A stretch of 64,000 bases of DNA from Dehalococcoidia bacterium (lineage in GTDB: Bacteria > Chloroflexota > Dehalococcoidia > GIF9 > UBA5629). The position numbers were made by a program, and so were the translations under genes. Below are positions 20,423 through 55,509 of the stretch, piece by piece; positions within the stretch are counted from its first letter, which is position 1, and the number at the start of each line of letters is the position of its first letter. The notes beneath the pieces were generated by a model. That model did no database searches, had not been told where the DNA came from, and saw only the letters and a program-made list of their open reading frames with translations. The stretch spans positions 5,994 through 69,993 of the forward strand of contig DAOTVU010000060.1 of assembly GCA_034436215.1 (NCBI GenBank), given 5' to 3'.

Positions 20423-20424
20423 CC

Positions 20425-32089: not shown

Positions 32090-32458
32090 ATGGATATAAC
32101 AGTTACACAGACAGTCAAAAGAGAAAGGCAGGTGATCAACCGCGGTCATATGATATTTGCCCTGTCACTGATGGCACAGTTTCAACTGTGGGATGGCCTG
32201 ATAACTCAGACATTTGTCAAAAGGGGGCTGGCAGTTGAGGGCAATATGTTGATGAGCGGTCTGGTTCAGTCCGGTAGTTTTCTCATTTTTAAAATTATCG
32301 GTGTAGTGGCTGTATCAGCACTGCTGTGGCTGTTATATAAAATGTATCCCAGACTGGCCATCGGTGCTTCTATAGCCATAGCCGTATTCTATGCGGGAGT
32401 TGTTACATGGAATCTATTAGTTGTCTTCGATAAAGTTCTCCCGATCAGTTTCGCATAG
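32090..32458 (+). CDS. Small 3-TM membrane protein (DUF5658-like)
   Basis: LSLMAQFQLWDGLITQ...VEGNMLM motif pattern. 122 aa. Confidence 0.4.
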   Translation: MDITVTQTVKRERQVINRGHMIFALSLMAQFQLWDGLITQTFVKRGLAVEGNMLMSGLVQSGSFLIFKIIGVVAVSALLWLLYKMYPRLAIGASIAIAVFYAGVVTWNLLVVFDKVLPISFA

Positions 32459-34259
32459 CTATTTTGCTCGGTCTGGAAACGTCAAAATCGAAATCAAACT
32501 CGTTATGCTCCAGGATATCAAGCAGCAGATCAACCACCCTGGCATCGTAAAGACGGTCTCTACCGTTCTGCAACTCGCTTACTATCTCATCTCGTGATCG
32601 TGCTGGTCTGTACGGTCTATGGGAACCCATTGCTTCGACTACATCGCAAACGCCCAGGATCCTCGATTCGAGGCCAATCTTCTCACCGGTGATGCCGTTG
32701 GGATAACCGCTCCCATCCAATCTTTCATGATGCTGTAGTATCATATTCATAACGCGCTGGGGAAGGTTCATGTTCTGTAACATTTCGCAGCCACGTTTAA
32801 CATGCGAGCGGATAAGTATCCATTCTTCTTCGGTTAGCCGTCCGGGCTTGGCCAGAATTGTAGTGGGCACCGCTGCCTTACCGATATCATGCAACAGTGC
32901 CCCCACCTGAAGCCATTCAAGCTGTTCTTCGCTCAGGCCAAGACGTTCACCAACCATGCCCGCCAGAGTGGCCAGCCTTTCCTGATGGCTGACCGTATAA
33001 GGATCCACAGCAAGCAGGGCGCTGGAAATCATGCGCGTCATCTGAATGAAGTGCTGCTTTATCTGCCTGCTGGTTTGCATACGCTCGATAGCCTGTGCCA
33101 GCATGGTCGCAGATGTTGCCAGCAAATTGATTTCAACCGGTTTCCACCCTCTTGTTGCCGCCGATTTCTCAAACCCGATTACACCCGCAAACGCTGAGTT
33201 GACCATAATCGGTAGTATCACACTGGAAGTCTCTCCATTTACCGAACTGACAATCGCCCCTTCCTTCCTGGACAAGTCCATCAGCCCCGGCCTAACATTA
33301 TCACCCTTCAGGATAGTCATCGGTTTGATCTTTCCTCCAGAATTTCCATTTCCGTTTTTTACATCTTCGCCGACATAGCTCACATATGTCCTCTGCTCCT
33401 TAGGAGACCTGCGGCTTTTCTCATTTACATCATCGATCTTCGATGGTTTCCCGGTGCTAATAACCTCATCAGACGTTCTGTCGTTGAGAAGAATAAAAGC
33501 ATTGCTTATATCGGCTGTCTTGCAGAGTATTTCCAGTATCTTTTTATACGGTATATCCTTCCCCGTTTCCAGCAACAACTGTCCTACCCTTGCAATTGTC
33601 TTCAAATACTGTTCTTTCTCTTTCTGAGCTTTTTCCACCTCTCTTCTCTCGGTTATATCCCTGGCCACACCCTGAAAACCGGCCAGTTCGCCGTTCCTGG
33701 TTCTGATAGGCAGAAAACTCATTTCAACAGGCACTTTGCTGCCATCCATCTTCATTATATCTATATACAGATGTCTGCCGGCTATATCCTTATATTGCTT
33801 CAGTTGCTCAAGTATAAATGACCTGTATTCAGGAGCGAGTACGCTCTGGATATTGCTGGTTAATATTTTATCGATCGGTAAACCGCTCATATTTTCAATT
33901 GCCCGGTTGGCAAACGTAAAGTTGCCGGCTCTATCAAGTGTAAAAATAATATCCTGAGTCGAATCTATAATATGCTGCATTCTCTTTTCGGCTTTACCAG
34001 CCTGCTCCCGCTGTGCAATCAGCTCATTCTGCATTTTATATATCTCACGGAAGCTGAAATGCACAAGTAGAAATATAATAGACATGCCGAACAGCCAGTC
34101 CAGCAGCATCTGCAATGCCGTGATAGCGATGCCGGAGCTTAAAAATACGTAATGTATAATCTGCAGAGATGCAAGGGTGGCCCCTGCCATAAAAAGTATT
34201 AGAGCTTCCAGTTGCCTTATCTGAACCCTGGTTTCCCTTCTGATAAAATCATCCGACAT
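32445..34259 (-). CDS. HD-GYP c-di-GMP phosphodiesterase with N-terminal TM, PAS and GAF sensor domains
   Basis: HDIGKAAVP...QHHERLDGSGYPNG. PAS (FTFANRAIENMSG) and GAF regions. 604 aa. Confidence 0.8.
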   Translation of the reverse strand: MSDDFIRRETRVQIRQLEALILFMAGATLASLQIIHYVFLSSGIAITALQMLLDWLFGMSIIFLLVHFSFREIYKMQNELIAQREQAGKAEKRMQHIIDSTQDIIFTLDRAGNFTFANRAIENMSGLPIDKILTSNIQSVLAPEYRSFILEQLKQYKDIAGRHLYIDIMKMDGSKVPVEMSFLPIRTRNGELAGFQGVARDITERREVEKAQKEKEQYLKTIARVGQLLLETGKDIPYKKILEILCKTADISNAFILLNDRTSDEVISTGKPSKIDDVNEKSRRSPKEQRTYVSYVGEDVKNGNGNSGGKIKPMTILKGDNVRPGLMDLSRKEGAIVSSVNGETSSVILPIMVNSAFAGVIGFEKSAATRGWKPVEINLLATSATMLAQAIERMQTSRQIKQHFIQMTRMISSALLAVDPYTVSHQERLATLAGMVGERLGLSEEQLEWLQVGALLHDIGKAAVPTTILAKPGRLTEEEWILIRSHVKRGCEMLQNMNLPQRVMNMILQHHERLDGSGYPNGITGEKIGLESRILGVCDVVEAMGSHRPYRPARSRDEIVSELQNGRDRLYDARVVDLLLDILEHNEFDFDFDVSRPSKIAMRN

Positions 34260-34311: not shown

Positions 34312-36120
34312 TTATTTCCCCTTCCAATCGTTTGAGCCGGAGTTATATCCGTACTCATTCGATGCATATTCATCCTCTTCCTCTTCGTATTCCTCATCGT
34401 CCAGGTTTCTGAGCTTACGTATCGTATGTCCGATCCAGAAGAACATAAAACCAAAGAGCGCCAGACCGAGGATAATCAGTATCCACTTCACCCATTCCGG
34501 CATATTGCTGACGATTGTAAAGAAGGTATGGCCTTTATAGAAGGAGCTGACCAGCGACCAGTTGCTTTCATTGGAGGCACGATCAACTGCCTTTACACGC
34601 CAGTAGTAAGGTTTATCCCTGCCGGGCAACATCTTGCTGTCTTCAGTTATATCAATATAATTAGCCACGATATTGGCCTGCGACATGATGATATTGGTAA
34701 ACTTGGGATCTTCGGCTATTTCCAGTGTATACGTGACGCCGCTCGGGTCTGATACCGGAGCCCATTCGAAATGAACATCCTTGGTCATACGCTCACCATC
34801 GGAAGGGAGTGATAGAGATGGAGCTGTAGGCGGCGTTGATTCAACGGTAAAAACAACGCGCTGCATATTCACACCATCGCTGGCCACGATGGTATGCTGA
34901 CCGAATCGGCTGACCGGGATTTTAAATATCTGTGAAAAACTTCCCGTTGAATCCACCGCCGTTCCTTCAAGTTTGATATTATCGTAAGTCAGGCTGACCG
35001 GGAAGCCCGGCCTGAAACCCAGGCCTCTAACCGCCACCTGCATACCTACAAATCCGGTTGCAGGGCTGATGGATAAAGCGGAACTCACGTTGATGTCTTT
35101 AAAAGCCTTATTAACACGATCATCAACTTTGATCCTGTGGGTGCCATCGCCACAGGCGGGCACGATGACCCCGGTGGTGAAGCTGCCGTTCGCATCGGTC
35201 TGGGTAACGCCGATGTCCTTATCATCCCAATAAATCAACACATCGGAAACGGTTTGAAAACCTGTTCCCATCACGGTAACGTTATCACCCACTGCGGCCG
35301 ATGTGGGTATAATATCCATCTGCTGTCTGACATTGAATACCTGCGTGGCAATGTTATTATCGCTATCCTGAGCTTTGATATGATGATTACCCCTGCCAAG
35401 TGCGGGTATGGTTAATTTCAAATCGTAAAAGCGCCCCTTTTCATCGGTTTCCGCAGTTACCAGTTTGGAATCGTCGACGCCTACATAAACGAGCTTTTTA
35501 CAGGCGAATCCGTAACCGTTAACCAGAACAGTATCACCGACAAAACCACTGACCGCATTATTTCCCAGGGTAATAGAGGGATTGACTTTAAACCCGGCGG
35601 TAAGTTTGTTGACTCCATCATCAGCCATGATGATATAGCGGCCGGCCGGGTAAATATCAATGGGAAAATCAACCACACCATAACCGGTGCTATCGGTCGT
35701 CAACCTGGTTGCCACAATAGTCTTGACTTCGGCTGTCGTACCGGTTCCAATTACAGTTGTCGTGCCGAAGGTAATAATTACCTGCTTGTTAACCTGATAA
35801 TTAATCACACGTATGTAAACCTGGGTGCCCACCGTCCCTTCCTGTGGCATTACTTCAAGTACAGGGGGACCAACGGTGGTTGAGTTATCCGCTACAACCC
35901 GCTCACAGGGAATATTTACACTCAGAATATACAACGGCAGTAACGAAAGCAATGTCAGCAATCTGATAATAACCACATAATAGCAGAAAGGTTTTGTTTT
36001 TCCCTTATTACATCCCCAGGTTGCAATCAGCCGGAAAAACGCTGACTTTATCACTTGCAGCACCTTGATAAAATTATCGACTATCATGTTTCCCTCCTCT
36101 TTATTCTGAGTGTAAACCAC
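34312..36120 (-). CDS. Large cell-surface protein: N-terminal TM, four Ig-like repeats, FN3, C-terminal TM and acidic cytoplasmic tail
   Basis: Repeats G.V.V.G.GF...HxIxAxD. HFEWAPVSDPSGVTYTLEIAEDPKF FN3. WILIILGLALFGFMFFWIG TM. DDEEYEEEEDEY tail. Directly downstream of arlJ in same orientation. Confidence 0.5.
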   Translation of the reverse strand: MVYTQNKEEGNMIVDNFIKVLQVIKSAFFRLIATWGCNKGKTKPFCYYVVIIRLLTLLSLLPLYILSVNIPCERVVADNSTTVGPPVLEVMPQEGTVGTQVYIRVINYQVNKQVIITFGTTTVIGTGTTAEVKTIVATRLTTDSTGYGVVDFPIDIYPAGRYIIMADDGVNKLTAGFKVNPSITLGNNAVSGFVGDTVLVNGYGFACKKLVYVGVDDSKLVTAETDEKGRFYDLKLTIPALGRGNHHIKAQDSDNNIATQVFNVRQQMDIIPTSAAVGDNVTVMGTGFQTVSDVLIYWDDKDIGVTQTDANGSFTTGVIVPACGDGTHRIKVDDRVNKAFKDINVSSALSISPATGFVGMQVAVRGLGFRPGFPVSLTYDNIKLEGTAVDSTGSFSQIFKIPVSRFGQHTIVASDGVNMQRVVFTVESTPPTAPSLSLPSDGERMTKDVHFEWAPVSDPSGVTYTLEIAEDPKFTNIIMSQANIVANYIDITEDSKMLPGRDKPYYWRVKAVDRASNESNWSLVSSFYKGHTFFTIVSNMPEWVKWILIILGLALFGFMFFWIGHTIRKLRNLDDEEYEEEEDEYASNEYGYNSGSNDWKGK

Positions 36121-36742
36121 CTAAAAACTGTGAAATTTCCGAACCCAATTTAGTTATATTATCTATATCCACATCAAAAAGATTGGCAGCCAGATCGGAG
36201 GTTGAGGAATCTTCAGCCTCTTCAACCTCGAAGACACTCATCAGGTCTACCTGCTCTTTAGGCATCTCCTGTTCTCCGTCGGTCAATGTATCCAGTGAAG
36301 GGAGATCAGGCAATTCCAATCCCCCGCCAGGTCGGTCGGCTGCCCGACCTGCAGGAGCAGCTTCCGATGCAGGCATTTCCGGTTCGGTGATGGCTTCCGG
36401 AAGAGTTATATTATCCTCCCCTTCCGTTTCAGCCATTTTCTGGGCTGCAGCCCTACTGCTATCTCTGTCACTCGACTTACCCGATGCACTGGCCTTCTCT
36501 TTCTTAGCTTTACCGTCCGGCAGGAGCCTGCTTTCGGGATATTCCTTAAGCTGCATCAGTCCATCCTGTTTATCTCTCTTTTTGCCATCGGCGGCAATTT
36601 GCGCCTTTCTCCCGCCAGCACCGCGCTTCACTCGACGCTTGCGAGGCACCATGCTTCTGATAATCATCCACATGACACCGAACACCGCGCCCGACGCTAC
36701 CAGTATCATCAGTAAATAGATACCAATCTCGTAAAAATCCAA
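36101..36742 (-). CDS. Single-TM protein with basic juxtamembrane segment and long acidic disordered tail
   Basis: MDFYEIGIYLLMILVASGAVFGVMWMIIRSMVPRKRRVKRG then Lys-rich, then E/D-rich low complexity. Confidence 0.4.
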   Translation of the reverse strand: MDFYEIGIYLLMILVASGAVFGVMWMIIRSMVPRKRRVKRGAGGRKAQIAADGKKRDKQDGLMQLKEYPESRLLPDGKAKKEKASASGKSSDRDSSRAAAQKMAETEGEDNITLPEAITEPEMPASEAAPAGRAADRPGGGLELPDLPSLDTLTDGEQEMPKEQVDLMSVFEVEEAEDSSTSDLAANLFDVDIDNITKLGSEISQFLGGLHSE

Positions 36743-36765: not shown

Positions 36766-38337
36766 TTAACCGCCCATAGGCATTGCTCCGAACATACCCT
36801 TAACCATGCCGGGAATAAATATGAATGCCAGACCCGATATAATCATCATGATTGTTAGAAGATAGAGATATTTATAGTTATGTCCTCCATCGACCACTTT
36901 TATAGCCGCCGGATTGACTACCGTAAGCATCAGAAGCATGGCCGTAACCATCAGGTTGAGTATCTGTAGCTGGCCTGTAGAATTGGAGAAAAAGGCAAAG
37001 GTTGGCAGAGATGATATAGCTGAGAGATCCTGTGTACCCCCGGTGGTCTGCATTTTCTGCATAGCCTGAGCGAAATTCCACATAATCTGATAGATGCCTA
37101 CCAGCAAAACAGCCATCGTCACATGCATGGCAACGCATAAATAAAAGAAGGCAGATGATACCGCCTTCCTTTTTCCACGCAGCAAAGCTATCTTCATAGC
37201 AAACATCGAAGCCTGATTACCTACCGCTCCAGGATCTCCGCCCACAGCGATACCGTCCCAGAATATGCGGACACAGCGATTTATATGCTCGCTGCCCGAT
37301 TCGCACACAAACTTATGCCAGCAAAGGTCAGGCCGAATGCCAAAGCGTAGAGCATTATTCAGTCTGATAACCGGCTTTTTAAGAGAAGCCAGCGAGCCGA
37401 AATCAAGCCGGCTGATGCCTTCGGTAATGGTTGCACCTATTACCTTGGTTATCCCGCCGAGAGACCTGAGAAAACCGGCTATATCGGCATCGTTCTTATC
37501 TATTTTCCTGTCATCCCACCATATCAAGATACCCGGCGGCGCGATAATAAGCGCTATAACTATCAGCGACCAGCCCATGCCGGCATTCATCAGAAATAAT
37601 ACCGGCAACGATAGCACTGCCAGTGGAACGGAAACATAGAACAATACCTTACGCGCCAGTTCCTGTGCCCTTGATGTCTCCGGCAGTGAGTGTGTTTTTA
37701 CCTCTTTGGGCGATGCCCTGTAAAGTATCCATGCACCTGCAATGACAGAAATCAGCATCAAAAAAGTAAGCACCGACGAAAAAGTGGGTGGCATGGGGAA
37801 AATCAGCATCGATACCACGCTGATAACAACCACCATAGAAGCCGAGATTATTAAAGCCGCATAAGCATCTGTCCACTTACGCAGGCTTTCGATCTGCCTT
37901 TCGTACTCATCAGCGTAAGTCTCACCCATAACTTCGGCTTCGCGCTTGAGAAACTGCGCCTCATCTTCACCCGAAGCCATAGCACCCGACATCCGCAATA
38001 AAATAGCCTTGGGCTCGGCCTCCCTGGTAGATTCACCGACCATGCGACACGCCTCCGAATAATCGTAATTCAATCTTTTAGCCAGGAAATGCACCTTGCG
38101 CAGATAAACCGAAGAAGTAAAATTCAACCGGGATGCATATTCAAACATCAGCGATCTGGGTAAAGATGACGTAGCCAGAGCCGACATATAAGTAATCTGA
38201 CAGAACAGGTCTCCCTTGAGAAGATCGGTGTTCATCTTGATCTTCCCGTTACCTGAGCCGGATATTACATCGGCTTCTGTACGCGAATTAGAAAAGCCCT
38301 TCCCGTTGTGCTTTAGCAAGGACCTTAAGGAGATCAT
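36766..38337 (-). CDS. arlJ: ArlJ/FlaJ-like polytopic membrane platform protein (TadC/GspF superfamily)
   Basis: 523 aa, two blocks of TM helices separated by cytoplasmic domains. Position immediately downstream of FlaI-like ATPase. Confidence 0.65.
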   Translation of the reverse strand: MISLRSLLKHNGKGFSNSRTEADVISGSGNGKIKMNTDLLKGDLFCQITYMSALATSSLPRSLMFEYASRLNFTSSVYLRKVHFLAKRLNYDYSEACRMVGESTREAEPKAILLRMSGAMASGEDEAQFLKREAEVMGETYADEYERQIESLRKWTDAYAALIISASMVVVISVVSMLIFPMPPTFSSVLTFLMLISVIAGAWILYRASPKEVKTHSLPETSRAQELARKVLFYVSVPLAVLSLPVLFLMNAGMGWSLIVIALIIAPPGILIWWDDRKIDKNDADIAGFLRSLGGITKVIGATITEGISRLDFGSLASLKKPVIRLNNALRFGIRPDLCWHKFVCESGSEHINRCVRIFWDGIAVGGDPGAVGNQASMFAMKIALLRGKRKAVSSAFFYLCVAMHVTMAVLLVGIYQIMWNFAQAMQKMQTTGGTQDLSAISSLPTFAFFSNSTGQLQILNLMVTAMLLMLTVVNPAAIKVVDGGHNYKYLYLLTIMMIISGLAFIFIPGMVKGMFGAMPMGG

Positions 38338-40066
38338 AGAAGTTCTTTACCCCCTGTTGACCCAGTTTTTCGAGTATTTTTGCCCGCCGTTCTACCTCAG
38401 CATAAATACGGCGCTTCTTATGCGGTGGTATTCCCAGCTTGGGTGCGATTTTATGTTCGAGGATGTAGCTGTTGCCATCACCCGAGAAAATAAAAGTATC
38501 GGTAATAGGGTCCCAGCGAAATGCCTCCACAAAAGAGAATGATTGAGCTACGGGATCGTAGCCTACGATTTCGTTTATACTGGTCATGCGTCTGCCAGTT
38601 TTGCCGTTGGGCAACTTGACCGCCTGCTGGATAATGCAGATATTCAGGTTATCCATATAGGATTTGGGCACATTGATGGGTGAACCGGTAAGACGTTGAA
38701 TAAGCCTTTCAACCGAGGCGGCGTGGAAGGTGGCCATAACGGAGTGGCCGGTCTGCATTGCCTGAAAAGCAATTGCACCCTCAACACCACGGATTTCACC
38801 CACGATGATTTCATTGGGCCTCTGACGTAATGCAGCCTTGAGCAGATCGAACATCCCCACGCCCGCATCCCCCTCCTTGGTAGTCGAAACAACCTCTCTA
38901 ATCCAGTTCTGGTGCGGCACCTGAAGTTCCGGTGTGTCTTCGATAGAGACAATTTTGGCATTTGGATGGATGAAGGTAGTCACCGCATTAAGGGTAGTGG
39001 TTTTACCGGAAGCCGTTTCCCCGCAGACAAATACATTCATTCCTTCACCGATGGTAATGGACAGGTATGCCGCCATCTTATAATCAAGGGTACCCATATC
39101 GATAAGCTCGAGTATCGACAGCGGTGTCTCGCTGAATTTTCTGATGGTGAAATTGGAACCGCGTTTGGAAACATCGGTACCGTAAACGATATTGATACGC
39201 GAGCCGTCCGGCAGAGTAGCATCCACTATCGGGCTATGCACGCTGACCGGCTTTTTAATTCTCTCGGCCAGTCTCATGACAAATTGATCGAGGTCTTCAG
39301 ATGTAGAAAAATTGATTACCGTTTTCAGACTTTTAAAGATTTTGTGCTCAACGAAAATCACACCCATGCCGCTGCAGCTCACATCCTCGACATATTTATC
39401 ATACACGATGGGATCCAGCACACCCATGCCCACCTTATCCCGTATAATCAGATATTTAATTTCCTGTAACTGCCGGGGTGTCACTTCCAGCGGCCTTATC
39501 CTGTTATTGACTGATATCCTGTCCATGAGACCGATACCGCCTTTACCTTTGCCATTTACATTTCCTCTGAGGCCATTTCGCATACCCATTGGCGAAGGCT
39601 GGCTACCCTTGATAACACATATCTCATCGATACAGCGTGAAAATGCCTCTCTTTTTTCTTCCTCAGTTTTTATGGAAAAGTCACCCAGTCTATCAGACAT
39701 ATCCAGCAGGCGTTTCTCCACTTCAATTAAAAGATGATCGATGTTATGTGTTAATGTAGGTTCGATCGGGATGTATGTATTTCTGCCGTCTCCGTGATCG
39801 TAAATTATATGTGTAAATACACCATCTTTAACCGGATAAATAAGATTGGGATTGGGGGTTGAGCCCATGCTGCGTTCGAGCTTCTCATAATATTTAGGCA
39901 TACCGTAGTTATCTATGGGCACCAGTTGCAGATACTCCAGGAGGTGTGGGTTCTTTTGAACGACCTCCTGAGCCTGTTTGGATAGCAGACTGAGTATATT
40001 ACAGCTATCAGGCCTTTTCTTATTTTTAGCATCTGCTACAGGGAAAGGGAGTATAATTTCCGGCAT
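38288..40066 (-). CDS. arlI: ArlI/FlaI-like secretion-superfamily ATPase (type IV filament assembly motor)
   Basis: Walker A VCGETASGKTTTLNA, Asp/His boxes, IIVGEIRG Walker B. 592 aa with long N-terminal domain as in archaeal FlaI. Confidence 0.8.
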   Translation of the reverse strand: MPEIILPFPVADAKNKKRPDSCNILSLLSKQAQEVVQKNPHLLEYLQLVPIDNYGMPKYYEKLERSMGSTPNPNLIYPVKDGVFTHIIYDHGDGRNTYIPIEPTLTHNIDHLLIEVEKRLLDMSDRLGDFSIKTEEEKREAFSRCIDEICVIKGSQPSPMGMRNGLRGNVNGKGKGGIGLMDRISVNNRIRPLEVTPRQLQEIKYLIIRDKVGMGVLDPIVYDKYVEDVSCSGMGVIFVEHKIFKSLKTVINFSTSEDLDQFVMRLAERIKKPVSVHSPIVDATLPDGSRINIVYGTDVSKRGSNFTIRKFSETPLSILELIDMGTLDYKMAAYLSITIGEGMNVFVCGETASGKTTTLNAVTTFIHPNAKIVSIEDTPELQVPHQNWIREVVSTTKEGDAGVGMFDLLKAALRQRPNEIIVGEIRGVEGAIAFQAMQTGHSVMATFHAASVERLIQRLTGSPINVPKSYMDNLNICIIQQAVKLPNGKTGRRMTSINEIVGYDPVAQSFSFVEAFRWDPITDTFIFSGDGNSYILEHKIAPKLGIPPHKKRRIYAEVERRAKILEKLGQQGVKNFYDLLKVLAKAQREGLF

Positions 40067-40090: not shown

Positions 40091-40816
40091 TTAAGCCCTG
40101 GCCCTGCCGATCGGCATCACGCGCATGCCGATACCCGGATCGACATCAAAGCTCATGATATTACCGGTATTTTTATCGGCACCGCGTACTTTAGCCACTT
40201 CCAGCACCTTGACCAGCTTGTCACCTACCTCCTCGATACGCAATCTCAAGTGGGCATCACAAACCGATCTAATGCGTATCAATACCTGTTCATCAAACGC
40301 ATATGTATGCGTGATATTAATTATTGTCCTGCCACCATCGCAGAGCTTCTTGCACTGCTCAAAATAATCGATAATCTGTTCGGTGGACGTATGGGCTATA
40401 ACCGGTGTGAGGGAATCCACTACAATCAACTTGTAAGTCGGATATGCCATGACTCCGGCTATGATAGTTGAGAAAGTATTGACGGTTTTCATCTTCGACG
40501 GTTCGATAGTAAATATTTTGATCCATCCCAGCAATAACGGGTCGAGTATGCTCAAACCGAGGCTTTCCATCTGGCTGTGCAGACTTTTAACCGTATTTTC
40601 GGTTGTAAACAGCAGCACTTTATGACGCGCATTCAGGGCACCCCACATCATCTGCTGTGAAAGGACCGATTTACCAGCGTCCGACTGTCCTTCGATCAAT
40701 GTCAGTGACCCGACGGGGATCCCGCCGCCCAGTCTTTTATCGATCTCTGAGTGACCCGTACATATTATTTCGTCCTGCGATCGTTCTTCTTCATCCGATG
40801 CCAGTATCTTCGTCAT
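40091..40816 (-). CDS. arlH: ArlH/FlaH-like KaiC/RecA-superfamily ATP-binding protein
   Basis: 241 aa. GIPVGSLTLIEGQSDAGKSVLSQQM Walker A in the FlaH arrangement. Located between arlG and arlI. Confidence 0.7.
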   Translation of the reverse strand: MTKILASDEEERSQDEIICTGHSEIDKRLGGGIPVGSLTLIEGQSDAGKSVLSQQMMWGALNARHKVLLFTTENTVKSLHSQMESLGLSILDPLLLGWIKIFTIEPSKMKTVNTFSTIIAGVMAYPTYKLIVVDSLTPVIAHTSTEQIIDYFEQCKKLCDGGRTIINITHTYAFDEQVLIRIRSVCDAHLRLRIEEVGDKLVKVLEVAKVRGADKNTGNIMSFDVDPGIGMRVMPIGRARA

Positions 40817-40976
40817 GTCAGCCTCGTATCCGTATAATCATTACCTTCACCATCCAAACGTAGCCTGGCTTTTCACGCCGTTGGGCGCAACCACTGTGAC
40901 CAGATTGGTGGTATTTTCTGTAACTGCCGGGCTTAGGTTTAGGGTTATTCTCATAGTTTCACCCGGATTCAAAATG

Positions 40977-41345
40977 TCAGGCTCGTAAATTTCCGGCTTC
41001 CCCTGGAAAAAAAAAGCCGGCCGTTACCCATCCCGGGATGGCAGTCCCATAGGGAATCCACAGGGTATCGCCATCCTGGTAACGTACGATTACATCCCAT
41101 TTAGAATAGTTATACAGGTCCGCTTTACCGGTATTCTGGATATCGACGTTGACCACAGACCCTCTGCTCAGTGTGGAGGTGGCGGTACAACTTATATTCG
41201 AATCGATCATGTTACGTGTAATCGATTCCTCGGTCCGCAGTGCCTCAGAAATACTGTTCACAGCGTTGAGTGTGCTGGTTGCAACCGACACCGCACCGAT
41301 AATTAATAAAGCAATGCACACAAGTGAGATAGCGAAATTCTCCAT
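40977..41345 (-). CDS. ArlG/ArlF-like N-terminally anchored beta-sandwich protein, probably truncated by a frameshift at an A9/T9 homopolymer (true end likely ~40847)
   Basis: N-terminal TM MENFAISLVCIALLIIGAV. ORF ends just after FFF (T9). +1 frame continues 52 codons open with protein-like sequence up to 40847. Confidence 0.45.
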   Translation of the reverse strand: MENFAISLVCIALLIIGAVSVATSTLNAVNSISEALRTEESITRNMIDSNISCTATSTLSRGSVVNVDIQNTGKADLYNYSKWDVIVRYQDGDTLWIPYGTAIPGWVTAGFFFPGEAGNLRA

Positions 41346-41821
41346 GGCACTCCAATACTCGTACTGTAAATTTCCTGGTCGGTTATACCGTTGGGCAGTA
41401 CAAACTTCAGATAATACGATCCGGACGGCGCAGAATTTAAATATATGGTGATCTTAATGGTAGCTGTGGGTTCCCAGGCGGAAGCATTTTCGATAATATA
41501 ATTCCAGCACGGTCTGCTTGATGCCAGCGCATCATAAGGTATCCTGCTGAAATCGCCTTCAGGCCCGAAAAACAGGTCGCTTTTATCAATGCCCAGTATA
41601 CGCGTCACCCCCACGTTTTTAACCCAGACGTAAACATTATTTCCGCTATCTGAAACTTCTATAATTTCGATTTTCGACCGGATTTTGTCATCGATTTTAC
41701 CCGTAGCCTCTGCGATAGCCCCTGTGCTGTCCATAATAGCCGGGAATATCGCATTAACCACCACCATACAGCACACCACACCGCCGATTATAAGTAGAAG
41801 CGTAACTATTACCTTATCCAC
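41303..41821 (-). CDS. ArlF/ArlG-like N-terminally anchored protein
   Basis: N-terminal TM LLLIIGGVVCCMVVV then beta-rich domain (VYVWVKNVG). Synteny between archaellin and arlH. Confidence 0.45.
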   Translation of the reverse strand: MDKVIVTLLLIIGGVVCCMVVVNAIFPAIMDSTGAIAEATGKIDDKIRSKIEIIEVSDSGNNVYVWVKNVGVTRILGIDKSDLFFGPEGDFSRIPYDALASSRPCWNYIIENASAWEPTATIKITIYLNSAPSGSYYLKFVLPNGITDQEIYSTSIGVPWRISLSHLCALLY

Positions 41822-42776
41822 GGGCTGACTCCTTCATCATAGACAGTACCGACAGCAGGGCATTATCCTGACCGGGTGAGCCGCCCATGAGGCTTTCCAG
41901 CTGTGCCAGCGTTGCCAGATAATCGGTAGCGGTTGGAGTCTGTCCGTTAGCCTCGTAGCGAGAAATGCGTATCATGCGTATCATCACATCTCTTAATTTT
42001 TCGGGTATTCTGCCCATAGCGGTAGACATTTCAACCAGTGCTTCCGTCCGGTCTTTGCCCAGCTTGGCTGTTGCCTGATCCACCCATTGAGTTAAGCCAG
42101 CTATAACCACCAGGTCGGCTCTGGTACCAACGGTAGAGCTGGCAAGGTTCTTTTTCTTTCCTCCACGTCCTGTTAAGCTCTTTGATGCCCGTCTATCCTC
42201 CTGATCTTCATCTTCCTCGTCAGCCTCCTCATGGAGTTCCATTTCCTCCTCGACTTCCATCTCTCTTTTCTTCCTGCTGCGCGAGCTTTTGGCTTTCTGA
42301 GCAGGTTCTGCGTCCTCTTCATCTTCCGTACGCAACTCGGTCTGAACCCCGGCTGACGATACCGGTCCGGATGACGGCCCCGGGCCGGCGGCTTCACCCA
42401 TACCTGCCTGTAAGCCGGGTTTATCCAATTTTCCTGTCAGATCGGGAAAAGGTTTACCGAAACTCATATCCGGCGTATCCTCAACAGGAGCAGGAGACAG
42501 CTGGTCGTTTTCTCCAATATCCACTTCCTCCTGGCTCACCTCTTCTGGATTATCCTTGATATCCGGGCTGACACCGGCAGGTGGCGTGCCGGTATTGGCC
42601 ACCAGGGCATTAAAGGGGTTCTGGATGTTCAAATATTGCTCTCTGATATCGAGCAGGATGGTTTTTACCTCGTTCTTCAGAATTTTCACTTCTTCTTCGA
42701 GCAATTTTATGCGCTGTTCTTCGTTCATGTTTTTCCCCTTTTTACAGTGGGCATCCGCTTTGCCGCGGATGCCCAC
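41814..42776 (-). CDS. Coiled-coil / acidic low-complexity protein with conserved C-terminal ~110-aa domain (candidate archaellum switch/stator-side component, ArlCDE/ArlX position)
   Basis: N-terminal heptad-like EEQRIKLLEEEVKILKNEVKTILLDIREQ. Long E/D-rich linker. Globular C-terminus. Confidence 0.4.
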   Translation of the reverse strand: MGIRGKADAHCKKGKNMNEEQRIKLLEEEVKILKNEVKTILLDIREQYLNIQNPFNALVANTGTPPAGVSPDIKDNPEEVSQEEVDIGENDQLSPAPVEDTPDMSFGKPFPDLTGKLDKPGLQAGMGEAAGPGPSSGPVSSAGVQTELRTEDEEDAEPAQKAKSSRSRKKREMEVEEEMELHEEADEEDEDQEDRRASKSLTGRGGKKKNLASSTVGTRADLVVIAGLTQWVDQATAKLGKDRTEALVEMSTAMGRIPEKLRDVMIRMIRISRYEANGQTPTATDYLATLAQLESLMGGSPGQDNALLSVLSMMKESARG

Positions 42777-42815: not shown

Positions 42816-43430
42816 TTAGTGCAAATCCATAACCTTATTAAGAGAAGGCGGCAGTGTCCTCTGTACGGTGATGGTGGAGCCCAGGGACGGTTTAACCTGC
42901 AGGTTAAATGTATCATTGGCAGTCAGGTTTTCGGAAAGGGATTTATTATCGCCCAGATCAAACAGATCGATGGTTATTTCAAACTGCTCACCCTGCTCCA
43001 GCAGGTTGTTGCTGTTGGCTTTACCTATAGCAATTTTGCTCCATTTGACGTTATTGAGATAATCGTTCTTGGTTGTAAGGCTGATCACCGTCTTATTGGT
43101 TGCACTGGAAGTTCCGTCGCACTCGGTTAGATCGATAGGATTACCGGCAATAGCATTTTTAACCGTGAAGAGGATATATCTAACGTTTGTTTCGTCATCA
43201 CTCTTGGCCAGTACCGAGCCGGATAATTCCATATTGCTCTTGGCTTCCTCGAGGCCGGCATAGATGGTTTCCTTGCCTCTTTCGGCTGAGAAGAGGCCTG
43301 CGCTCAACACGGCATAGCCGAACACTGCTGCCACAGTGACGAAGGCAATAAGGATGATGGCGGTCTCGAGACCGGTCATACCTTTTTCACCTCTGTGCAG
43401 CTTTTCCATGGCTTTCATTAACTTCGACAT
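42816..43430 (-). CDS. arlB: Archaellin (ArlB/FlaB-type class III signal peptide filament subunit)
   Basis: MSKLMKAMEKLHRGEKG|MTGLETAIILIAFVTVAAVFGYAVLSAG : basic leader, KG cleavage site, conserved hydrophobic N-terminal helix. ATG with AAGGAGGAAAAA SD. Confidence 0.75.
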   Translation of the reverse strand: MSKLMKAMEKLHRGEKGMTGLETAIILIAFVTVAAVFGYAVLSAGLFSAERGKETIYAGLEEAKSNMELSGSVLAKSDDETNVRYILFTVKNAIAGNPIDLTECDGTSSATNKTVISLTTKNDYLNNVKWSKIAIGKANSNNLLEQGEQFEITIDLFDLGDNKSLSENLTANDTFNLQVKPSLGSTITVQRTLPPSLNKVMDLH

Positions 43431-47194: not shown

Positions 47195-48376
47195 TCAAAA
47201 TTCACTTATCTCGCTGATCAGCACATTTCTTTTCGATTCCCTGGAAAGATCAATGTCCTTCTTAGACTCCTTTATCGTCTGACGCTCACTGCATTCAAGC
47301 TGACAGCCCGTACAGATACTGTTCGGCTCATCCACGTCTTTTATAGAGCCGCCGATTATTCTCAACTTTGGCCTGCGTACGCATTCAGGATTTGATTTAC
47401 TCACAATCCCGACCCTGCCGTCGTTCAATTTAACCATCGTCCCGGTGGGGTAAACCGGAACGACTCTGGTAAAAACCCGTACCAGTTCCGGATCGAAAAG
47501 CTCACCGCTGTATGCGTAGATATATTCTATGGCATCCTGAGATGAAACGATGCTCTGCTCAATGGCAAATGACGGCAAGAATTCTTCACGATGGGGACGT
47601 TTGGAAGCCAGTGCAAAACATACATCGGTTATACCGATTATTCCTGCCGATCTGGATATCTCCTGCTCACGCAAACCGTAGGGATATCCGCTGCCGTTCC
47701 ATCTTTCATGATGCTGGAGGACGATATCAACCACTTCCGGATCCACCCCGGTGTACTTTGCCAGAATCTGTGAACCATAGGTCGGATGCCTCTGCACGGC
47801 CTTTATCTCGGCGCTGTTTAAATAACCAGCCTTTTCCAAAATGCCCTGGGGAATAAGCATGTAACCGACATTCTGAAAAACCGCGGCCAAGCCCAGCTGT
47901 TTTATTTCACGTTCATCCATGCCGCATTCTTTCCCGACCAGGATGGACAGACTGGCAACCTTCACCGGATGAACGAAATTATAATCGCGCAGCGAGTAAC
48001 AGCCGGCGATAGATGCGTCTCCACGGTTGTTAGATAACAGATAGGCGATCAGCTCATCAATCAGATTGTTGAGCAATGAGAGATCAATTGGCTGCTGGCT
48101 GCGGCTGACCAGTACGGATCGGCAGTCTATCAGTGCCCGGCGCAATGCCTTTGATATGGCGCCCTCCAGTTCGGGTGGCACCAGAGGTATCACGTTGATA
48201 TCTTCGGTCTTTTTACTGCAGATGAATAGCTCACCCACACCTATATCGTCAACCTTGGCGATATCTCTGGCATCCAGCTTTGTGCCGGCCGGTAAAACCA
48301 TGTCGCCCCAGTTATCATACACCGGTCTGGCCAGCTCCATGCCGGGTTTTACATAGATAGCCGAAATACGCTGCAT
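47195..48376 (-). CDS. HD-GYP c-di-GMP phosphodiesterase (paralog 1) with N-terminal DUF3391-like domain and C-terminal Cys-rich tail
   Basis: QHHERWNGSGYPYGL. CTGCQLECSE near C-terminus. Confidence 0.75.
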   Translation of the reverse strand: MQRISAIYVKPGMELARPVYDNWGDMVLPAGTKLDARDIAKVDDIGVGELFICSKKTEDINVIPLVPPELEGAISKALRRALIDCRSVLVSRSQQPIDLSLLNNLIDELIAYLLSNNRGDASIAGCYSLRDYNFVHPVKVASLSILVGKECGMDEREIKQLGLAAVFQNVGYMLIPQGILEKAGYLNSAEIKAVQRHPTYGSQILAKYTGVDPEVVDIVLQHHERWNGSGYPYGLREQEISRSAGIIGITDVCFALASKRPHREEFLPSFAIEQSIVSSQDAIEYIYAYSGELFDPELVRVFTRVVPVYPTGTMVKLNDGRVGIVSKSNPECVRRPKLRIIGGSIKDVDEPNSICTGCQLECSERQTIKESKKDIDLSRESKRNVLISEISEF

Positions 48377-48403: not shown

Positions 48404-49558
48404 TTAATATTCCATCACCTCTACGATTAATTTACGCTGATGTTCGGCATCGGCCAGGTTTATATCCACGGGCTTTTCCAGCTCACGCAACTCGCTATCA
48501 TAGCAGATACGTACTTTCGGTCGTGAAAAATATCCGCAGTTGGCATTGGAAACGATGCCGACCTCTCCCGTATTCAGCTTTACCATAATGCCCGATGGAT
48601 AGGTCGGCAGTTGTTTGGTGAAGATTTTAACCAGATCGGGATCAAACAGCTCACCGCTGTAAGCAACGATAAACTCCATAGCCTGATGTGGCCGTAAAAA
48701 GTCAGCATCGCCCAGATCACCTGAAAAGGCGTTGACAAATTCCTGTGCCTCTCTGGGCAGGATACAGCCGCGATGCGGCCGTTTGGAAACAAGCGCCACC
48801 ACGCTATCGGTGATGGCGATTATACGTGCACCGTGGCAGATATTCCTCCCCTTCAACCCCGAGGGGTAGCCGCTGCCGTTCCAGCGCTCGTGATGCTGCT
48901 GGATTATCAGAACCGTTTCCTGTGAAGCCTGACCGTATCGTCGAACGATCTCAGCTCCGTAAGCGGCATGCTTCTGAACCGCCTTTGCTTCTGCCTCCGT
49001 CAGCGGCCCCTCTTTATCTATAACGCCCTGTGGCAGGGCAGCATAACCTATATTCTGCAACATAGAAGCCATACCAAGGTTGATAAGTTCGGTCTGACCC
49101 ATGCCGGCAGCTTTCCCGATCAGTAAAGACAGACTGGTTACCTTCACAGGATGTACAAAATCGTAATCCCTTACCGAGTGGCAACCCACAACTACCGGTT
49201 CACCCATAGCTACCGGGAAGAGCTGCTGCACCATCTCGAAAACACCCTGTCTGATGGCAGTTAGATCCAGCATCATGGCCTTCCTGGAGGTGATAATAGA
49301 CTGAGCCTTAAACAGAATCTGTTTCAATGCGGCGGCCAGCGACCCTTCAAGTTCCGGCGTTATGAGAGGCCAGGCAGTCACATCATCTACTCTTTTATCC
49401 ATGATAAAAAGCTCGCCTACGCCCACTTCATCCAGGCTGGCAATATGGGATGCTGTCAGCTTGGTTCCCTCCTTTAAAAGCATCCTGCCGTAAGGGTCGT
49501 AGAGGGCGCGGCCCAGCATCATCGTCGGCTTGGCATATCTGGCAGATATGCGACGCAT
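48404..49558 (-). CDS. HD-GYP c-di-GMP phosphodiesterase (paralog 2)
   Basis: QQHHERWNGSGYPSGL. Same architecture and N-terminal MRRISARYAKP... as paralog 1. Confidence 0.75.
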   Translation of the reverse strand: MRRISARYAKPTMMLGRALYDPYGRMLLKEGTKLTASHIASLDEVGVGELFIMDKRVDDVTAWPLITPELEGSLAAALKQILFKAQSIITSRKAMMLDLTAIRQGVFEMVQQLFPVAMGEPVVVGCHSVRDYDFVHPVKVTSLSLLIGKAAGMGQTELINLGMASMLQNIGYAALPQGVIDKEGPLTEAEAKAVQKHAAYGAEIVRRYGQASQETVLIIQQHHERWNGSGYPSGLKGRNICHGARIIAITDSVVALVSKRPHRGCILPREAQEFVNAFSGDLGDADFLRPHQAMEFIVAYSGELFDPDLVKIFTKQLPTYPSGIMVKLNTGEVGIVSNANCGYFSRPKVRICYDSELRELEKPVDINLADAEHQRKLIVEVMEY

Positions 49559-49587: not shown

Positions 49588-50385
49588 TCAAACATCCGCC
49601 GTTGACCTTGCAGCCTTCCGGTAAAAACAGGTACCCATCTTCTGATAGCCGGCCTTCAGCGCATTTATCATGAACTCGGTGGCGCCAACAAACAGGACTC
49701 CGTTTTCGTTAAGAGACCGGTAAAAACGCCTGTTTAAGGAATCCTTGGCTTCTTCTGTGAAATAGATGGTCACATTTCTGCAGGCGATCAGATCAAAACC
49801 CACTTCAAATGGATCCGATAAAAGGTTATGTTTTTTAAACACCACCCTATCCCTTATCTCCTTCTGCAACCAGAAATCGTCTCCGTCTCTGGAGAAGTAC
49901 CTGCTGAGGTATTGCGGTGGTACGTTTTTAAGCAGGTCTGCTCTGTAAGGGCCGCCTGCCCTGGCGCGTGATAAACTGATCTCGTCCATATCGGTACCGA
50001 GTATCTGAAATGATATCTTCCGCGGCAGACTGTTCAAAATCATGGCGATTGAATACGCTTCCGCACCGTTGGAACATCCCGCGCTCCATATATTTATACG
50101 CGTTTTATTTGCTATCAGTCCCGGCAGGACGTTCTTTTCCAGATCATCAAAAGCCCACTTATCGCGGAAGAACTCGGTTACGTTTATAGTTAGAAAATCG
50201 CAGAGCTTTCTGAGGCTCTCCTCATCTTTCTCGATAGTGCGGCAGTAGGTAATAACATCAGAGTAAAGATTCTCAATAAAAGACTCGAGGCGGCGGCGCA
50301 TCTGCTGGCTCTTATAGTTGTCGAGATCGATGCCGGTCATCGTCAGCACCTTCTTTTTCAGCAGCATATATTCCTGATCGGTCAT
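49588..50385 (-). CDS. cheR: Chemotaxis protein methyltransferase CheR
   Basis: VTEFFRDKWAF, SAM-binding IWSAGCSNGAEAYSIAMIL. Confidence 0.85.
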   Translation of the reverse strand: MTDQEYMLLKKKVLTMTGIDLDNYKSQQMRRRLESFIENLYSDVITYCRTIEKDEESLRKLCDFLTINVTEFFRDKWAFDDLEKNVLPGLIANKTRINIWSAGCSNGAEAYSIAMILNSLPRKISFQILGTDMDEISLSRARAGGPYRADLLKNVPPQYLSRYFSRDGDDFWLQKEIRDRVVFKKHNLLSDPFEVGFDLIACRNVTIYFTEEAKDSLNRRFYRSLNENGVLFVGATEFMINALKAGYQKMGTCFYRKAARSTADV

Positions 50386-51482
50386 AACTGCACCTTCATA
50401 TAGGCTTTATCCGGCTCACGACAAAAGGCAGTGATCTCACTGACCATCTTTTGAACCGGTGCCACCCTGTCTGCCAGACCCGCTTCGATGACACTTCTGG
50501 GCATCCCGTAGACCACACAGGTCGATTCATCTTCGGCCAGCACCTTTCCTCCGGCGGCCTTTATCAAAGCGCATCCGTGTGTGCCGTCCGAACCCATTCC
50601 CGTCATAACAACTCCGATGCAGCGTGAGCCATATATCTTTACAGCCGATTCCATAGTAACATCCACTGCCGGCCTCAAACCGCAGCGCGGTTTGTCCTGA
50701 TTGAGGGAGATCTGGCCACCGGGCATCACCGCCATATGATAGCCGCCGGGCGCAATGAGGGCCTGCCCCCTCCTGACCATGTCACCCACCTCAGCCTCCT
50801 TAACAGTCACCCGGCTCAGTTCGTTAAGCCTTTCCGCAATAGACCGGGTGAATTTAGGCGGCATATGTTGCACGATTAAGAATGCTGCGGGCAGATCATC
50901 GGGTAAATTGGGCACGACTTCATACAATGCCCTCGGTCCGCCCGTAGAACTGCCGATAATGACCACCCTGTCTATGTGGCCGTTGCGTAGCGGTGGTTTC
51001 TCCTTCTCTTTCCGGCTGCCGCGCTGCAAAATAGCCAGCACATTTTTCAAACGGGCGTTTATACCGGCCACATCCACGCGGGCGGCATTCTTAACTTTGC
51101 TGATGAGCTCGCTGTTATTTCCCTCGCCGACAGGACTGACGAGCGATTGTTTGAGAAAAAAATCGACTGCCCCCATTTCCAGCGATTTTATGGTCACCTC
51201 CGCGCCTTCGGCAGTAAGGGCGCTCAGCATAATGACAGGGGTGGGGCATTCGGTCATAATTTTCTCCAGCGCTGTGATGCCGTCCATACCCGGCATCTCG
51301 ACATCCAGAGTAACCACGTCCGGTTGAAGATTTTTTATCTTCGCAACAGCATCATTCCCGTTACGCGCCATTCCGATAATTTCTATTTCCGGATCAAGAG
51401 ACAGATTTCTGGCGATCATAAATCTGGCATAAGCAGAATCATCAACCACCAGGACTCTGACAAATTTATCGACGGTTTTCAT
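50382..51482 (-). CDS. cheB: Chemotaxis response regulator protein-glutamate methylesterase CheB
   Basis: N-terminal REC (VLVVDDSAYAR...VTLDVEMPGMDG) + esterase domain GSSTGGP. Confidence 0.85.
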   Translation of the reverse strand: MKTVDKFVRVLVVDDSAYARFMIARNLSLDPEIEIIGMARNGNDAVAKIKNLQPDVVTLDVEMPGMDGITALEKIMTECPTPVIMLSALTAEGAEVTIKSLEMGAVDFFLKQSLVSPVGEGNNSELISKVKNAARVDVAGINARLKNVLAILQRGSRKEKEKPPLRNGHIDRVVIIGSSTGGPRALYEVVPNLPDDLPAAFLIVQHMPPKFTRSIAERLNELSRVTVKEAEVGDMVRRGQALIAPGGYHMAVMPGGQISLNQDKPRCGLRPAVDVTMESAVKIYGSRCIGVVMTGMGSDGTHGCALIKAAGGKVLAEDESTCVVYGMPRSVIEAGLADRVAPVQKMVSEITAFCREPDKAYMKVQL

Positions 51483-51509
51483 TTAATCTACCTTCCAGCA
51501 GACGGAATC

Positions 51510-51866
51510 TCAACTTATCATCTTTTTAACCGCAGCCAGCACCCGATCAGCATCAAAGGGCTTGACCACAAAATCCCTGGCACCGCTTTTCAGAGCTTCC
51601 ATGACCATGGACTGCTGCCCCATTGCTGTAACCATGGCCACCCTGGCACCGGGATCGATCTTAATTATCTCCTTCAATGTGGTCAGCCCGTCCATATTTG
51701 GCATTGTTATGTCCAGCAACACCCCATCCGGTCTGCATTCACGGTATTTTTCAATGGCCTCTGCACCATCAGCAGCTTCGGCAATTTCATATCCATTATC
51801 TGCCAGCAGCTTGGTACATCTCATACGCATAAATGCCGCGTCATCGACTACGAGTATCCTGGCCAA
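51510..51866 (-). CDS. cheY: Chemotaxis response regulator CheY
   Basis: 118 aa REC: ILVVDDAAFMR...LLDITMPNMDG...VVKPF. Confidence 0.85.
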   Translation of the reverse strand: MARILVVDDAAFMRMRCTKLLADNGYEIAEAADGAEAIEKYRECRPDGVLLDITMPNMDGLTTLKEIIKIDPGARVAMVTAMGQQSMVMEALKSGARDFVVKPFDADRVLAAVKKMIS

Positions 51867-52049
51867 CGCTTACCTCCTGTAAAGCTGTCTCCAATTTTTC
51901 CAATCCTCATCATCCCGGGGAGTGGCCGCTGTCGGCAGACCCCCGAAACGATATACAGATTTTTCCCGTATCAATTTTCATCGAGCCCGTAATCCAGCAC
52001 AAGGCACACAAGGTTATATTTCATGAGCCAGGCGGCTATTCCCGTCATT

Positions 52050-54158: not shown

Positions 54159-54334
54159 TGTATTTATTTATTTAATATTTGACATGTAAACAGATGCACG
54201 CCGAAAAATACCTCTGTCGGTTCACGACTTTCATTTGTGTACTTACTTTTTAATAATTTTCCCAATCACATAATCCCCGTACAAGTGGCAAACGTATCGT
54301 TATTGTGACCCGTATGGCTACCATTCCGTATCGG

Positions 54335-55461: not shown

Positions 55462-55509
55462 TACGCAGTTACATCCTCCTGTAATCCATTACGTTTATAA
55501 TTTTTACAT

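Follow-up and report, generated by a model that had tools for sequence, protein, structure and literature searches.

Does an early stop in a stator gene of a bacterial archaellum operon mark an assembly error, a dying gene, a reversible switch, or a site at which the cell changes reading frame in order to make the complete protein? The question is raised by a 64,000-nt stretch of Dehalococcoidia DNA (hereafter the window, whose numbering is used throughout), on the minus strand of which an arlF-like gene lying between arlG and arlH is cut short soon after a run of nine T (T9) and continues in the +1 frame almost to the next gene. An earlier, sequence-only reading of this DNA had offered an assembly indel, true pseudogenisation, or a slippage-based phase switch as explanations. 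Comparison with relatives makes it very probable that arlF is instead subject to a conserved and functional recoding at the level of the RNA or of the ribosome, and on balance slippage of RNA polymerase on the run would be its main route.

The proposed shift site

At the site the minus strand reads GGC TTT TTT TTT CCA GGG GAA GCC GGA AAT TTA CGA GCC TGA. The T9 of the sense strand (41015..41007; A9 on the plus strand and U9 in the mRNA) is followed nine codons on by the stop of an open reading frame (ORF) of 122 residues (40977..41345), whose zero-frame tail after the run is ...GFFFPGEAGNLR. Read from T9 in the +1 frame, the same DNA gives FFFQGKPEIYEPDILNPGETMRITLNLSPAVTENTTNLVTVVAPNGVKSQATFGW and ends at a TGA (40849..40847), 30 nt before the ATG of arlH (40816). 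The A9 run, the early stop nine codons beyond it and a +1 frame of 52 codons reaching 40847 just before arlH had all been described in the sequence-only reading, and the sequence bears them out.

Apart from the run of arlF, no A/T homopolymer in the 64-kb window reaches nine bases, and A8 matches number 4 where 4.1 are expected. The length of the T9/A9 run by itself is within chance expectation; its conservation in relatives is far beyond chance. The window's two other long A runs, both A8 (11669..11676 and 62266..62273), sit within uninterrupted ORFs (11449..11904 on the plus strand and 61482..62297 on the minus strand), and the ORFs of the window are dense and intact, so that the assembly shows no general homopolymer problem.

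Conservation of the interruption among relatives

The interruption is shared by relatives of this gene. In a protein search, 37 of the 38 clusters of the clade at 49% identity or more consist of proteins of 114-130 residues (37 clusters, 49-98% identity) that cover 65-78% of the restored query, and their C-terminal tails resemble FFFPGxxGNIRA, i.e. the zero-frame reading of the DNA that encodes FFFQGxPEIYEP in the +1 frame. Among the 111 homologous loci that were fetched, the site lies at the same codon in 27, and a further locus (L057) is truncated at the run because its contig ends there. Twenty-two of the site-bearing loci carry T9 followed by C-CAG-GG, and five or six carry T10, the tenth base being a C-to-T change; an identical +1 shift is needed in all of them, and T7, T8, T11 and T10 followed by C are absent from the 27-28 interrupted loci. 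In every case the +1 frame is open as far as a conserved ...FGW and stop directly before arlH (MTKILASDE...). Comparison of ortholog lengths had been proposed in the sequence-only reading as a check that might overturn it; the orthologs do stop at about the same point, but this does not refute the frame change, because the shift site and the +1 frame are conserved together.

The site-bearing loci comprise 20 distinct sequence contexts with 50-98% protein identity, and are found in 11 species-representative genomes, all labelled Dehalococcoidia or Chloroflexota, and in at least 14 metagenomes put together by different assemblers. An assembly error in the homopolymer, or a recent pseudogene in a degenerating motility operon, would be suggested by the fact that homopolymer indels are the commonest error of sequencing and of mutation alike, and by the zero-frame ORF ending inside a domain. 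However, the identical state recurs in independent assemblies, and the 20 contexts are not copies of one contaminant. The assembly indel of the sequence-only reading is thereby contradicted, since T9 stands on 13 contigs of the same strain group and at ~28 loci from independent assemblies and sequencing platforms. The window's exact 122-residue product is encoded on 13 contigs from independent samples; eight near-identical strain contigs, with 1-11 mismatches over ~4.4 kb, all carry T9; and the same state is found in JGI, MEGAHIT, SPAdes and Logan assemblies and in genomes of Microflora Danica (MFD), including a 2.46-Mb chromosome. The MFD genomes that carry the site are, we presume, long-read assemblies.

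A neighbour-joining tree groups the interrupted genes in a single clade, whose sister clade has the gene uninterrupted, and in-frame relatives occur also in more distant clades. At the position of the run these relatives have three residues, I/T-F/Y-L/F, encoded mostly with TTC codons, and therefore a product with three Phe at the junction retains the ancestral spacing. The base 5' of the run (41016 in the window) is C in all 18 distinct sequences, as the last base of GGC, GCC, GAC, TCC or ATC codons, and beyond the run the first base other than T is invariably C (41006). The flanking C residues may play a part when the RNA-DNA hybrid realigns, or may merely reflect codon preference.

Selection on the two halves of the gene and on the run

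For measurement of selection, 18 distinct genes were restored by dropping one T from each, and 17 of these were compared, the gene of locus L055 being left out for a 2-codon insertion. The downstream 52 codons in the +1 frame have a ratio of nonsynonymous to synonymous differences (pN/pS) of 0.21 and a median ratio of the corresponding substitution rates (dN/dS) of 0.10, with pS at 0.65, near saturation, whereas in the genomic zero frame the median dN/dS of this DNA is 1.7. The upstream 110 codons have a median dN/dS of 0.15. By these sequence measures strong purifying selection acts on the upstream and the downstream half alike. The zero-frame tail, on the other hand, varies from 4 to 15 codons among orthologs, and since this tail appears to be unselected no function is indicated for the truncated ArlF.

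These values bear directly on decay. A median dN/dS of 0.10 at near-saturated synonymous sites, a +1 frame that is open in all 18 sequences and intact neighbouring arl genes are the reverse of what a pseudogene should display, so that the pseudogenisation of the sequence-only reading is contradicted as well, and artefact and decay taken together are extremely improbable. Further lesions are confined to a single contig, L051 (Ga0124853_1302773, region 1380-1900 of the locus), which keeps T9 and has three more 1-nt deletions, two of them upstream and one 27 nt after the run, the last of which returns the C-terminal part to the zero frame. This contig was considered as a natural second-site suppressor and rejected, since the extra deletions mark it as low-quality sequence or a decaying copy, and it was not used as evidence.

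The selection extends to the nucleotides of the run itself. Of the degenerate codons, 45 encode an amino acid that never changes; only 3 of these have also kept all their nucleotides, and two of the three lie in the run. A control codon for an invariant Phe, Phe163, is TTT in 7 sequences and TTC in 10, and the TTT share of Phe codons in the flanking genes is 0.37-0.58. The run is unchanged in 17 further distinct orthologs, although TTT accounts for only ~45% of Phe codon usage. The host genomes have ~49-51% G+C, and T9 or T10 is the only run of at least nine bases in each locus. Few mutations are as frequent as the loss of one T from a run of nine. Repair to T8 should therefore be easy, yet it has spread in no lineage while synonymous sites became saturated, an evolutionary argument which implies that the interrupted state itself is favoured by selection.

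An essentially fixed run length and the phase-switch alternative

A nine-base homopolymer in the ORF of a surface structure would also suit phase variation at the level of the DNA, in which T9 would mean OFF, a subpopulation would be switched to motility ON when replication slips to T8 or T11, and the populations sampled would be mostly OFF. Such a run is prone to replication slippage, surface motility components are a typical class of phase-variable genes (PMC3711429), and purifying selection on the downstream half is expected with reversible switching as well. One allele of the required kind is known: the ENA contig k141_696158 (L112) has T8, is in frame and encodes a 165-residue protein, P0002, the sole in-frame allele seen in the clade. 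It is identical over 1097 nt to the T9 contig Ga0116202_10149858 (L050) except for T8/T9 at about locus position 842. This allele could be a rare variant and so reflect real tract heterogeneity, or could be an assembly difference on a short contig.

Against switching, the length of the tract is essentially fixed, with no variation in 9 assemblies of near-identical strains, whereas classical contingency loci have several tract lengths among strains; the polymorphism among strains by which such loci are recognised is thus missing here. An exact look-up of the in-frame alleles (FFF and FFFF) of the window and 8 orthologs, which is blind to slipped transcripts, found none in a collection of 15 billion proteins, from which the in-frame alleles of 9 lineages are thus absent. 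Moreover every "OFF" allele is in the same phase, where random indels should give both. DNA-level phase variation is thus quite improbable. The phase switch proposed in the sequence-only reading was right as to the sequence element, a run capable of slippage, but a run length from which L112 is the only departure to T8 agrees less well with ON/OFF switching in the DNA than with constitutive recoding at the RNA or the ribosome.

One polypeptide or two

A split gene, in which the downstream ORF would be translated as a separate polypeptide from its own start or by reinitiation, is scarcely credible. Candidate starts do exist in the +1 frame, namely a TTG (40972) and a clade-invariant Met (residue 131 of the restored protein). 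The TTG, codon 125, is however replaced by TTA, CTG or CTT in orthologs, and there is no conserved +1-frame start between the upstream stop and the EIYEP motif, with none at all in 4 of the 18 sequences. The ATG of Met131 (40952..40954 on the minus strand, in the context GETMRI) does not vary among the interrupted genes, but in-frame relatives have L, V, I, A or M at this residue. With the conserved EIYEP motif placed upstream of Met131, an independent start at this codon is, judged from the alignment, implausible; conservation within the extension is highest in the 17 codons from the run to this Met, and these are kept in in-frame relatives too. A separate C-terminal peptide would in addition be without a signal or membrane anchor for export.

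Slippage of RNA polymerase or shifting of the ribosome

Runs of nine A or T support efficient slippage by bacterial RNA polymerase, which yields transcripts with one or more extra bases and less often with a missing base (PMC1088944, PMC4256274). In arlF, RNA polymerase would realign on T9 (dA9 in the template) to give a minority of mRNAs with U8 and the junction GFFFQG, and some transcripts might have U11 and the junction GFFFFQG; translation of these U8 and U11 mRNAs would yield the complete ArlF, and standard decoding of the unslipped U9 mRNA the 122-residue fragment. By analogy with studied systems the efficiency of slippage might be 15-30%. Two of the features by which Baranov et al. 2005 (PMC1088944) recognise slippage sites are found here, and a third, run-length heterogeneity in the mRNA over uniform DNA, is predicted: a run of about nine bases or more within coding sequence is present as T9 or T10 in all site-bearing orthologs, and 18 non-identical genes share the same organisation, with in-frame homologs in the sister clade and in distant clades.

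The alternative is programmed ribosomal frameshifting on a uniform U9 mRNA, either by +1 movement of the P-site tRNA-Phe from UUU to UUC or UUU, or by a -2 slip of two tRNA-Phe to give four Phe. Re-pairing in the P site, as is expected of +1 frameshift sites, is available at the run (UUU U/C) and is perfect in the T9C and the T10 variants alike. The zero-frame codons that follow, CCA (13% of Pro codons) and GGG (16% of Gly codons), are the least used in the window, and the A site could thus be slow, although their rarity is forced by the +1-frame codons CAG GGN. A homopolymer frameshift in chloroplast atpB has been ascribed to ribosomal and not to transcriptional recoding (PMC8254509).

Several features nevertheless argue for RNA polymerase. 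The entire nine-base run is invariant, and a single-tRNA +1 slip requires the last UUU and the next base and so constrains the last codon only, whereas in 17 diverged sequences the first two Phe codons never vary at their third position; the invariance of the first six T residues, in this alignment, speaks for a mechanism dependent on the length of the run. The zero-frame A-site codon varies among orthologs (CCA, UCA, CGG), and neither a Shine-Dalgarno-like element upstream of the run nor a stimulatory structure downstream of it, as would be expected of a site like that of prfB, is conserved among them. The fold of the alignment at the run has an energy of -7.9 kcal/mol with almost no covariation, and a single-sequence z-score of -0.6, and no conserved RNA structure is thus detected there. 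For the -2 shift, a fourth Phe departs from the ancestral spacing of three residues. Ribosomal frameshifting as the explanation of the site is accordingly rather unlikely; if recoding is granted, RNA polymerase slippage would with fair probability be the main route, and both routes may contribute. A terminator or attenuator, or a slippage site stimulated by a stem-loop as in the Roseiflexus insertion sequence (IS) type, was considered and ruled out, there being no G+C-rich hairpin or terminator-like site at the run.

A number of points weigh against polymerase slippage as the source of ArlF. The commonest outcome of slippage in the cases studied, insertion of one base to give U10, would lead into a short, dead-end third frame, and the productive events, loss of one base or gain of two, are rarer, so that the yield of ArlF may be low. 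The heterogeneity of run length in the mRNA is itself predicted from the DNA. The ribosome, too, could plausibly move by +1 or -2 on a U9 that precedes C or U, and the sequence taken alone fits both routes. The T8 allele described above indicates that the tract can vary in the DNA or in assembly, and the stoichiometric rationale given below is extrapolated from Sulfolobus and Pyrococcus.

Identity and fold of the interrupted protein

The restored protein matches the Pfam family Arch_flagellin (PF01917) over profile positions 12-161 of 162 with E 1.1e-5, its score of 26.2 bits being slightly under the gathering threshold of 29.5, and the truncated 122-residue ORF has no Arch_flagellin match in the Pfam scan. 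A structure was modelled by AlphaFold2 for the in-frame ortholog P0002 only, from a shallow alignment, and is used here for strand topology and fold family and not for detail. The model (predicted local distance difference test, pLDDT, 66) consists of a helix at residues 2-47 and eight strands, three of which lie past the shift site (130-137, 146-152 and 158-164). Together with the Arch_flagellin match of the restored protein, these strands uphold the proposal of the sequence-only reading that the extension is beta-strand-like. The product of standard decoding would be, on this model, an incomplete beta-sandwich that is three strands short.

In a Foldseek search the P0002 model finds FlaG of S. 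acidocaldarius first (5TUH, TM 0.80 on the target) and then FlaF (4P94), and it superposes on the soluble domains of FlaG and FlaF across 114-131 columns. An N-terminal helix, an archaellin-like beta-sandwich and a place between arlG and arlH are features in common with the ArlF and ArlG (FlaF and FlaG) stators, and by helix, sandwich and operon position the interrupted gene belongs to the ArlF/ArlG family of archaellin-fold stators. Assignment within the family is less sharp. A profile of the interrupted gene against PDB sequences places FlaF (4p94) first with E 1.1e-5 and FlaG at 0.026; NCBIfam gives ArlF at 6e-5 and ArlG at 1.6e-4, both far under the 110-bit cutoff; and the slight precedence of FlaG over FlaF in Foldseek points away from arlF. 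The upstream gene is clearly FlaG-like (S. acidocaldarius FlaG 5tug, E 2.7e-10 by phmmer). The archaellum loci of Chloroflexota, Dehalococcoidia included, have been acquired from archaea, and their "arl2" type has the stator order arlG-arlF (PMC12488501). Because the profile favours FlaF, the upstream gene is FlaG-like and the order in Chloroflexota is arlG-arlF, the sequence evidence makes the interrupted gene most probably arlF rather than arlG, an assignment that is likely and not certain, and the ArlG label of the sequence-only reading should probably give way to it. The archaellum papers that were searched mention no frameshift or slippage in arlF, and the interrupted gene scores far below the NCBIfam equivalog cutoffs.

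Relation to known cases of recoding

To our knowledge conserved recoding is rare in non-mobile cellular genes, the cases being prfB, dnaX, chlD and a few genes of secretion systems. In prfB, which encodes RF2, the shift is +1 at CUU UGA C, where a stop codon occupies the A site and a Shine-Dalgarno sequence further upstream acts as stimulator. Like prfB, arlF is a chromosomal cellular gene of many species that requires a +1 shift for its full protein; unlike prfB, it has no stop in the A site of the shift, and no Shine-Dalgarno element is conserved there.

Closer parallels come from transcriptional slippage. In Shigella flexneri the type III secretion genes mxiE (T9), mxiA, spa13 and spa33 undergo slippage at T9 or at A-runs with 15-55% efficiency (PMC1088944, PMC4256274). 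As in mxiE, whose longer, functional protein comes only from slipped transcripts, a sense-strand T9 in the operon of an envelope nanomachine joins two overlapping ORFs. However, mxiE adds one base, and arlF needs one base lost or two added; and mxiE is a plasmid-borne regulator of one pathogen, whereas arlF is a structural stator gene in which the site is clade-wide and slippage is predicted from sequence comparison. Transcriptional frameshifting is also known in type VI secretion, in tssM1 of Citrobacter rodentium (A11, 20-25%) and tssM3 of Yersinia pseudotuberculosis, the ratio of truncated to full-length TssM, ~3-4 to 1, being important for function (PMC4256274). Like tssM, arlF encodes a structural component of a membrane machine and is interrupted just after a homopolymer; unlike tssM, with its poly-A of 11, its inserted base and its two species, the arlF site is found throughout a clade and the truncated ArlF is without an indicated function.

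Frameshifts in poly(A) or poly(T) have been kept between species of the insect endosymbionts Blochmannia and Buchnera, where rescue by transcriptional slippage gives ~30% full-length transcripts (Tamas et al. 2008; Wernegreen et al. 2010, both as cited in PMC3017870). Here too a frameshift within a homopolymer has been retained between species without decay of the gene, but those are AT-rich, reduced genomes under weak selection and with many tracts, whereas the hosts of arlF are free-living, have ~49-51% G+C and carry a single run of at least nine bases per locus, which argues for selection keeping the run and not for tolerance. Finally, dnaX of Thermus thermophilus has a run of nine bases (A9) in a cellular gene, as has arlF, and yields two products by slippage of the bacterial RNA polymerase (PMC1088944). 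In dnaX, unlike arlF, it is the shorter product (gamma) that arises from slipped transcripts, and both products have known functions.

The class of mechanism is thus well known, and what is new, as far as the literature was searched, is recoding in an archaellum gene: searches on arlF, flaF, archaellum genes and Chloroflexota, the papers on archaella included, found no report of recoding, frameshifting or slippage, and the sole related match concerned frameshift mutations in arl genes of a laboratory strain of Pyrococcus furiosus.

A probable role in stator stoichiometry

In archaea the ArlG filament spans the pseudoperiplasm and is capped by ArlF, which binds the S-layer, and added ArlF disturbs the polymerisation of ArlG (PMC8667602). 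By analogy, inefficient recoding would fix a low ratio of ArlF to ArlG from one operon mRNA and so probably keeps ArlF, the cap by which the ArlG stator filament is anchored, scarce. It is possible, though a little short of probable, that T9 serves in arlF as an adaptive signal for programmed recoding throughout the clade, the first in an archaellum or type IV filament machine, which is held against reversion to T8 and supplies a small and possibly condition-dependent fraction of ArlF cap per ArlG subunit. If so, nucleotide pools or growth rate could be among the conditions that set this fraction, and the bacterial host would have imposed its own control by polymerase slippage upon an imported archaeal motor. 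The idea that ArlF must stay scarce relative to ArlG bears on stator assembly, and any regulation of slippage frequency could be studied at this locus as a natural system. The peat and fen sites that we take to be the habitat may already be covered by paired metagenome, metatranscriptome and metaproteome data.

As a case of recoding, arlF is clean and phylogenetically deep: the site arose once and is found in at least 18 diverged sequences whose synonymous sites are saturated. The gene belongs, moreover, to the recently recognised bacterial archaellum. For annotation, arlF is called in these Dehalococcoidia genomes as a "hypothetical protein" or "FlaG" of 117-130 residues and should be annotated as one recoded gene; tools that assess the completeness of archaella may score it as truncated.

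Genomic context

The window is bacterial, encoding DnaE, the alpha subunit of DNA polymerase III (24840..27965, plus strand), and its closest relatives are metagenome-assembled genomes of Dehalococcoidia. The archaellum operon is complete on the minus strand from 43430 to 36766, in the order arlB-arlCDE-arlG-arlF-arlH-arlI-arlJ (Table 1). In 10 loci of the clade the remaining arl genes keep their full length and their synteny, with 88-94% identity in ArlH and 80-85% in arlI; the arlC/D/E-like gene is 51-60% identical across orthologous loci. The 320-residue product of the latter has no significant match in Pfam or NCBIfam, and its middle part is long, acidic and of low complexity. A chemotaxis cluster encoding CheA, CheC, CheD, a methyl-accepting chemotaxis protein (MCP), CheB and CheR lies 6 kb from the arl operon (49588..57606, minus strand), and operon and cluster together fit the recently described archaella of Chloroflexota.

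Table 1. Coordinates of the arlF shift site and of the archaellum genes in the window (aa, amino acids)
Feature	Position	Strand	Remarks
arlF-like gene, complete with one shift	40847..41345	-	165 aa (FFF junction) or 166 aa (FFFF junction); N-terminal helix and archaellin-type beta-sandwich
Zero-frame ORF	40977..41345	-	122 aa by standard decoding; last three beta-strands missing
Slippery run	41007..41015	-	T9; C before it in every case, C-CAG-GG after
+1-frame extension	40847..41005	-	52 codons and stop; encodes QGKPEIYEPDILNPGET...ATFGW
arlB (archaellin)	42816..43430	-	Pfam Arch_flagellin, E 1.6e-25
arlC/D/E-like	41814..42776	-	320 aa, acidic; assigned by position only
arlG	41303..41821	-	172 aa; directly upstream, 43-nt overlap with the arlF start; NCBIfam ArlG, E 7.6e-8
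arlH (KaiC-like ATPase)	40091..40816	-	NCBIfam FlaH, 272.8 bits, above cutoff
arlI (motor ATPase)	38288..40066	-	Pfam T2SSE, E 2.2e-39
arlJ (membrane platform protein)	36766..38337	-	Weak Pfam T2SSF match; syntenic in orthologous loci

Directly downstream of arlJ (34312..36742, minus strand) are the genes of a 213-residue membrane protein, acidic and of low complexity, and of a 602-residue protein that has repeated Ig-like segments and, at its C-terminus, a membrane helix; their products may be envelope or anchoring components, encoded on one transcript with the archaellum genes. Three proteins that carry an HD_5 domain (HD-GYP type), one of them with PAS domains, flank the motility genes at 32445..34259, 47195..48376 and 48404..49558 (minus strand), which suggests signalling of the cyclic-di-GMP type beside the archaellum. 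A scan of the whole window against Rfam detected no known RNA family. Apart from the motility genes, two adjacent paralogous genes for alpha/beta hydrolases resembling haloalkane dehalogenases are found at 19499..21696 (plus strand), the second with an N-terminal extension of ~130 residues.

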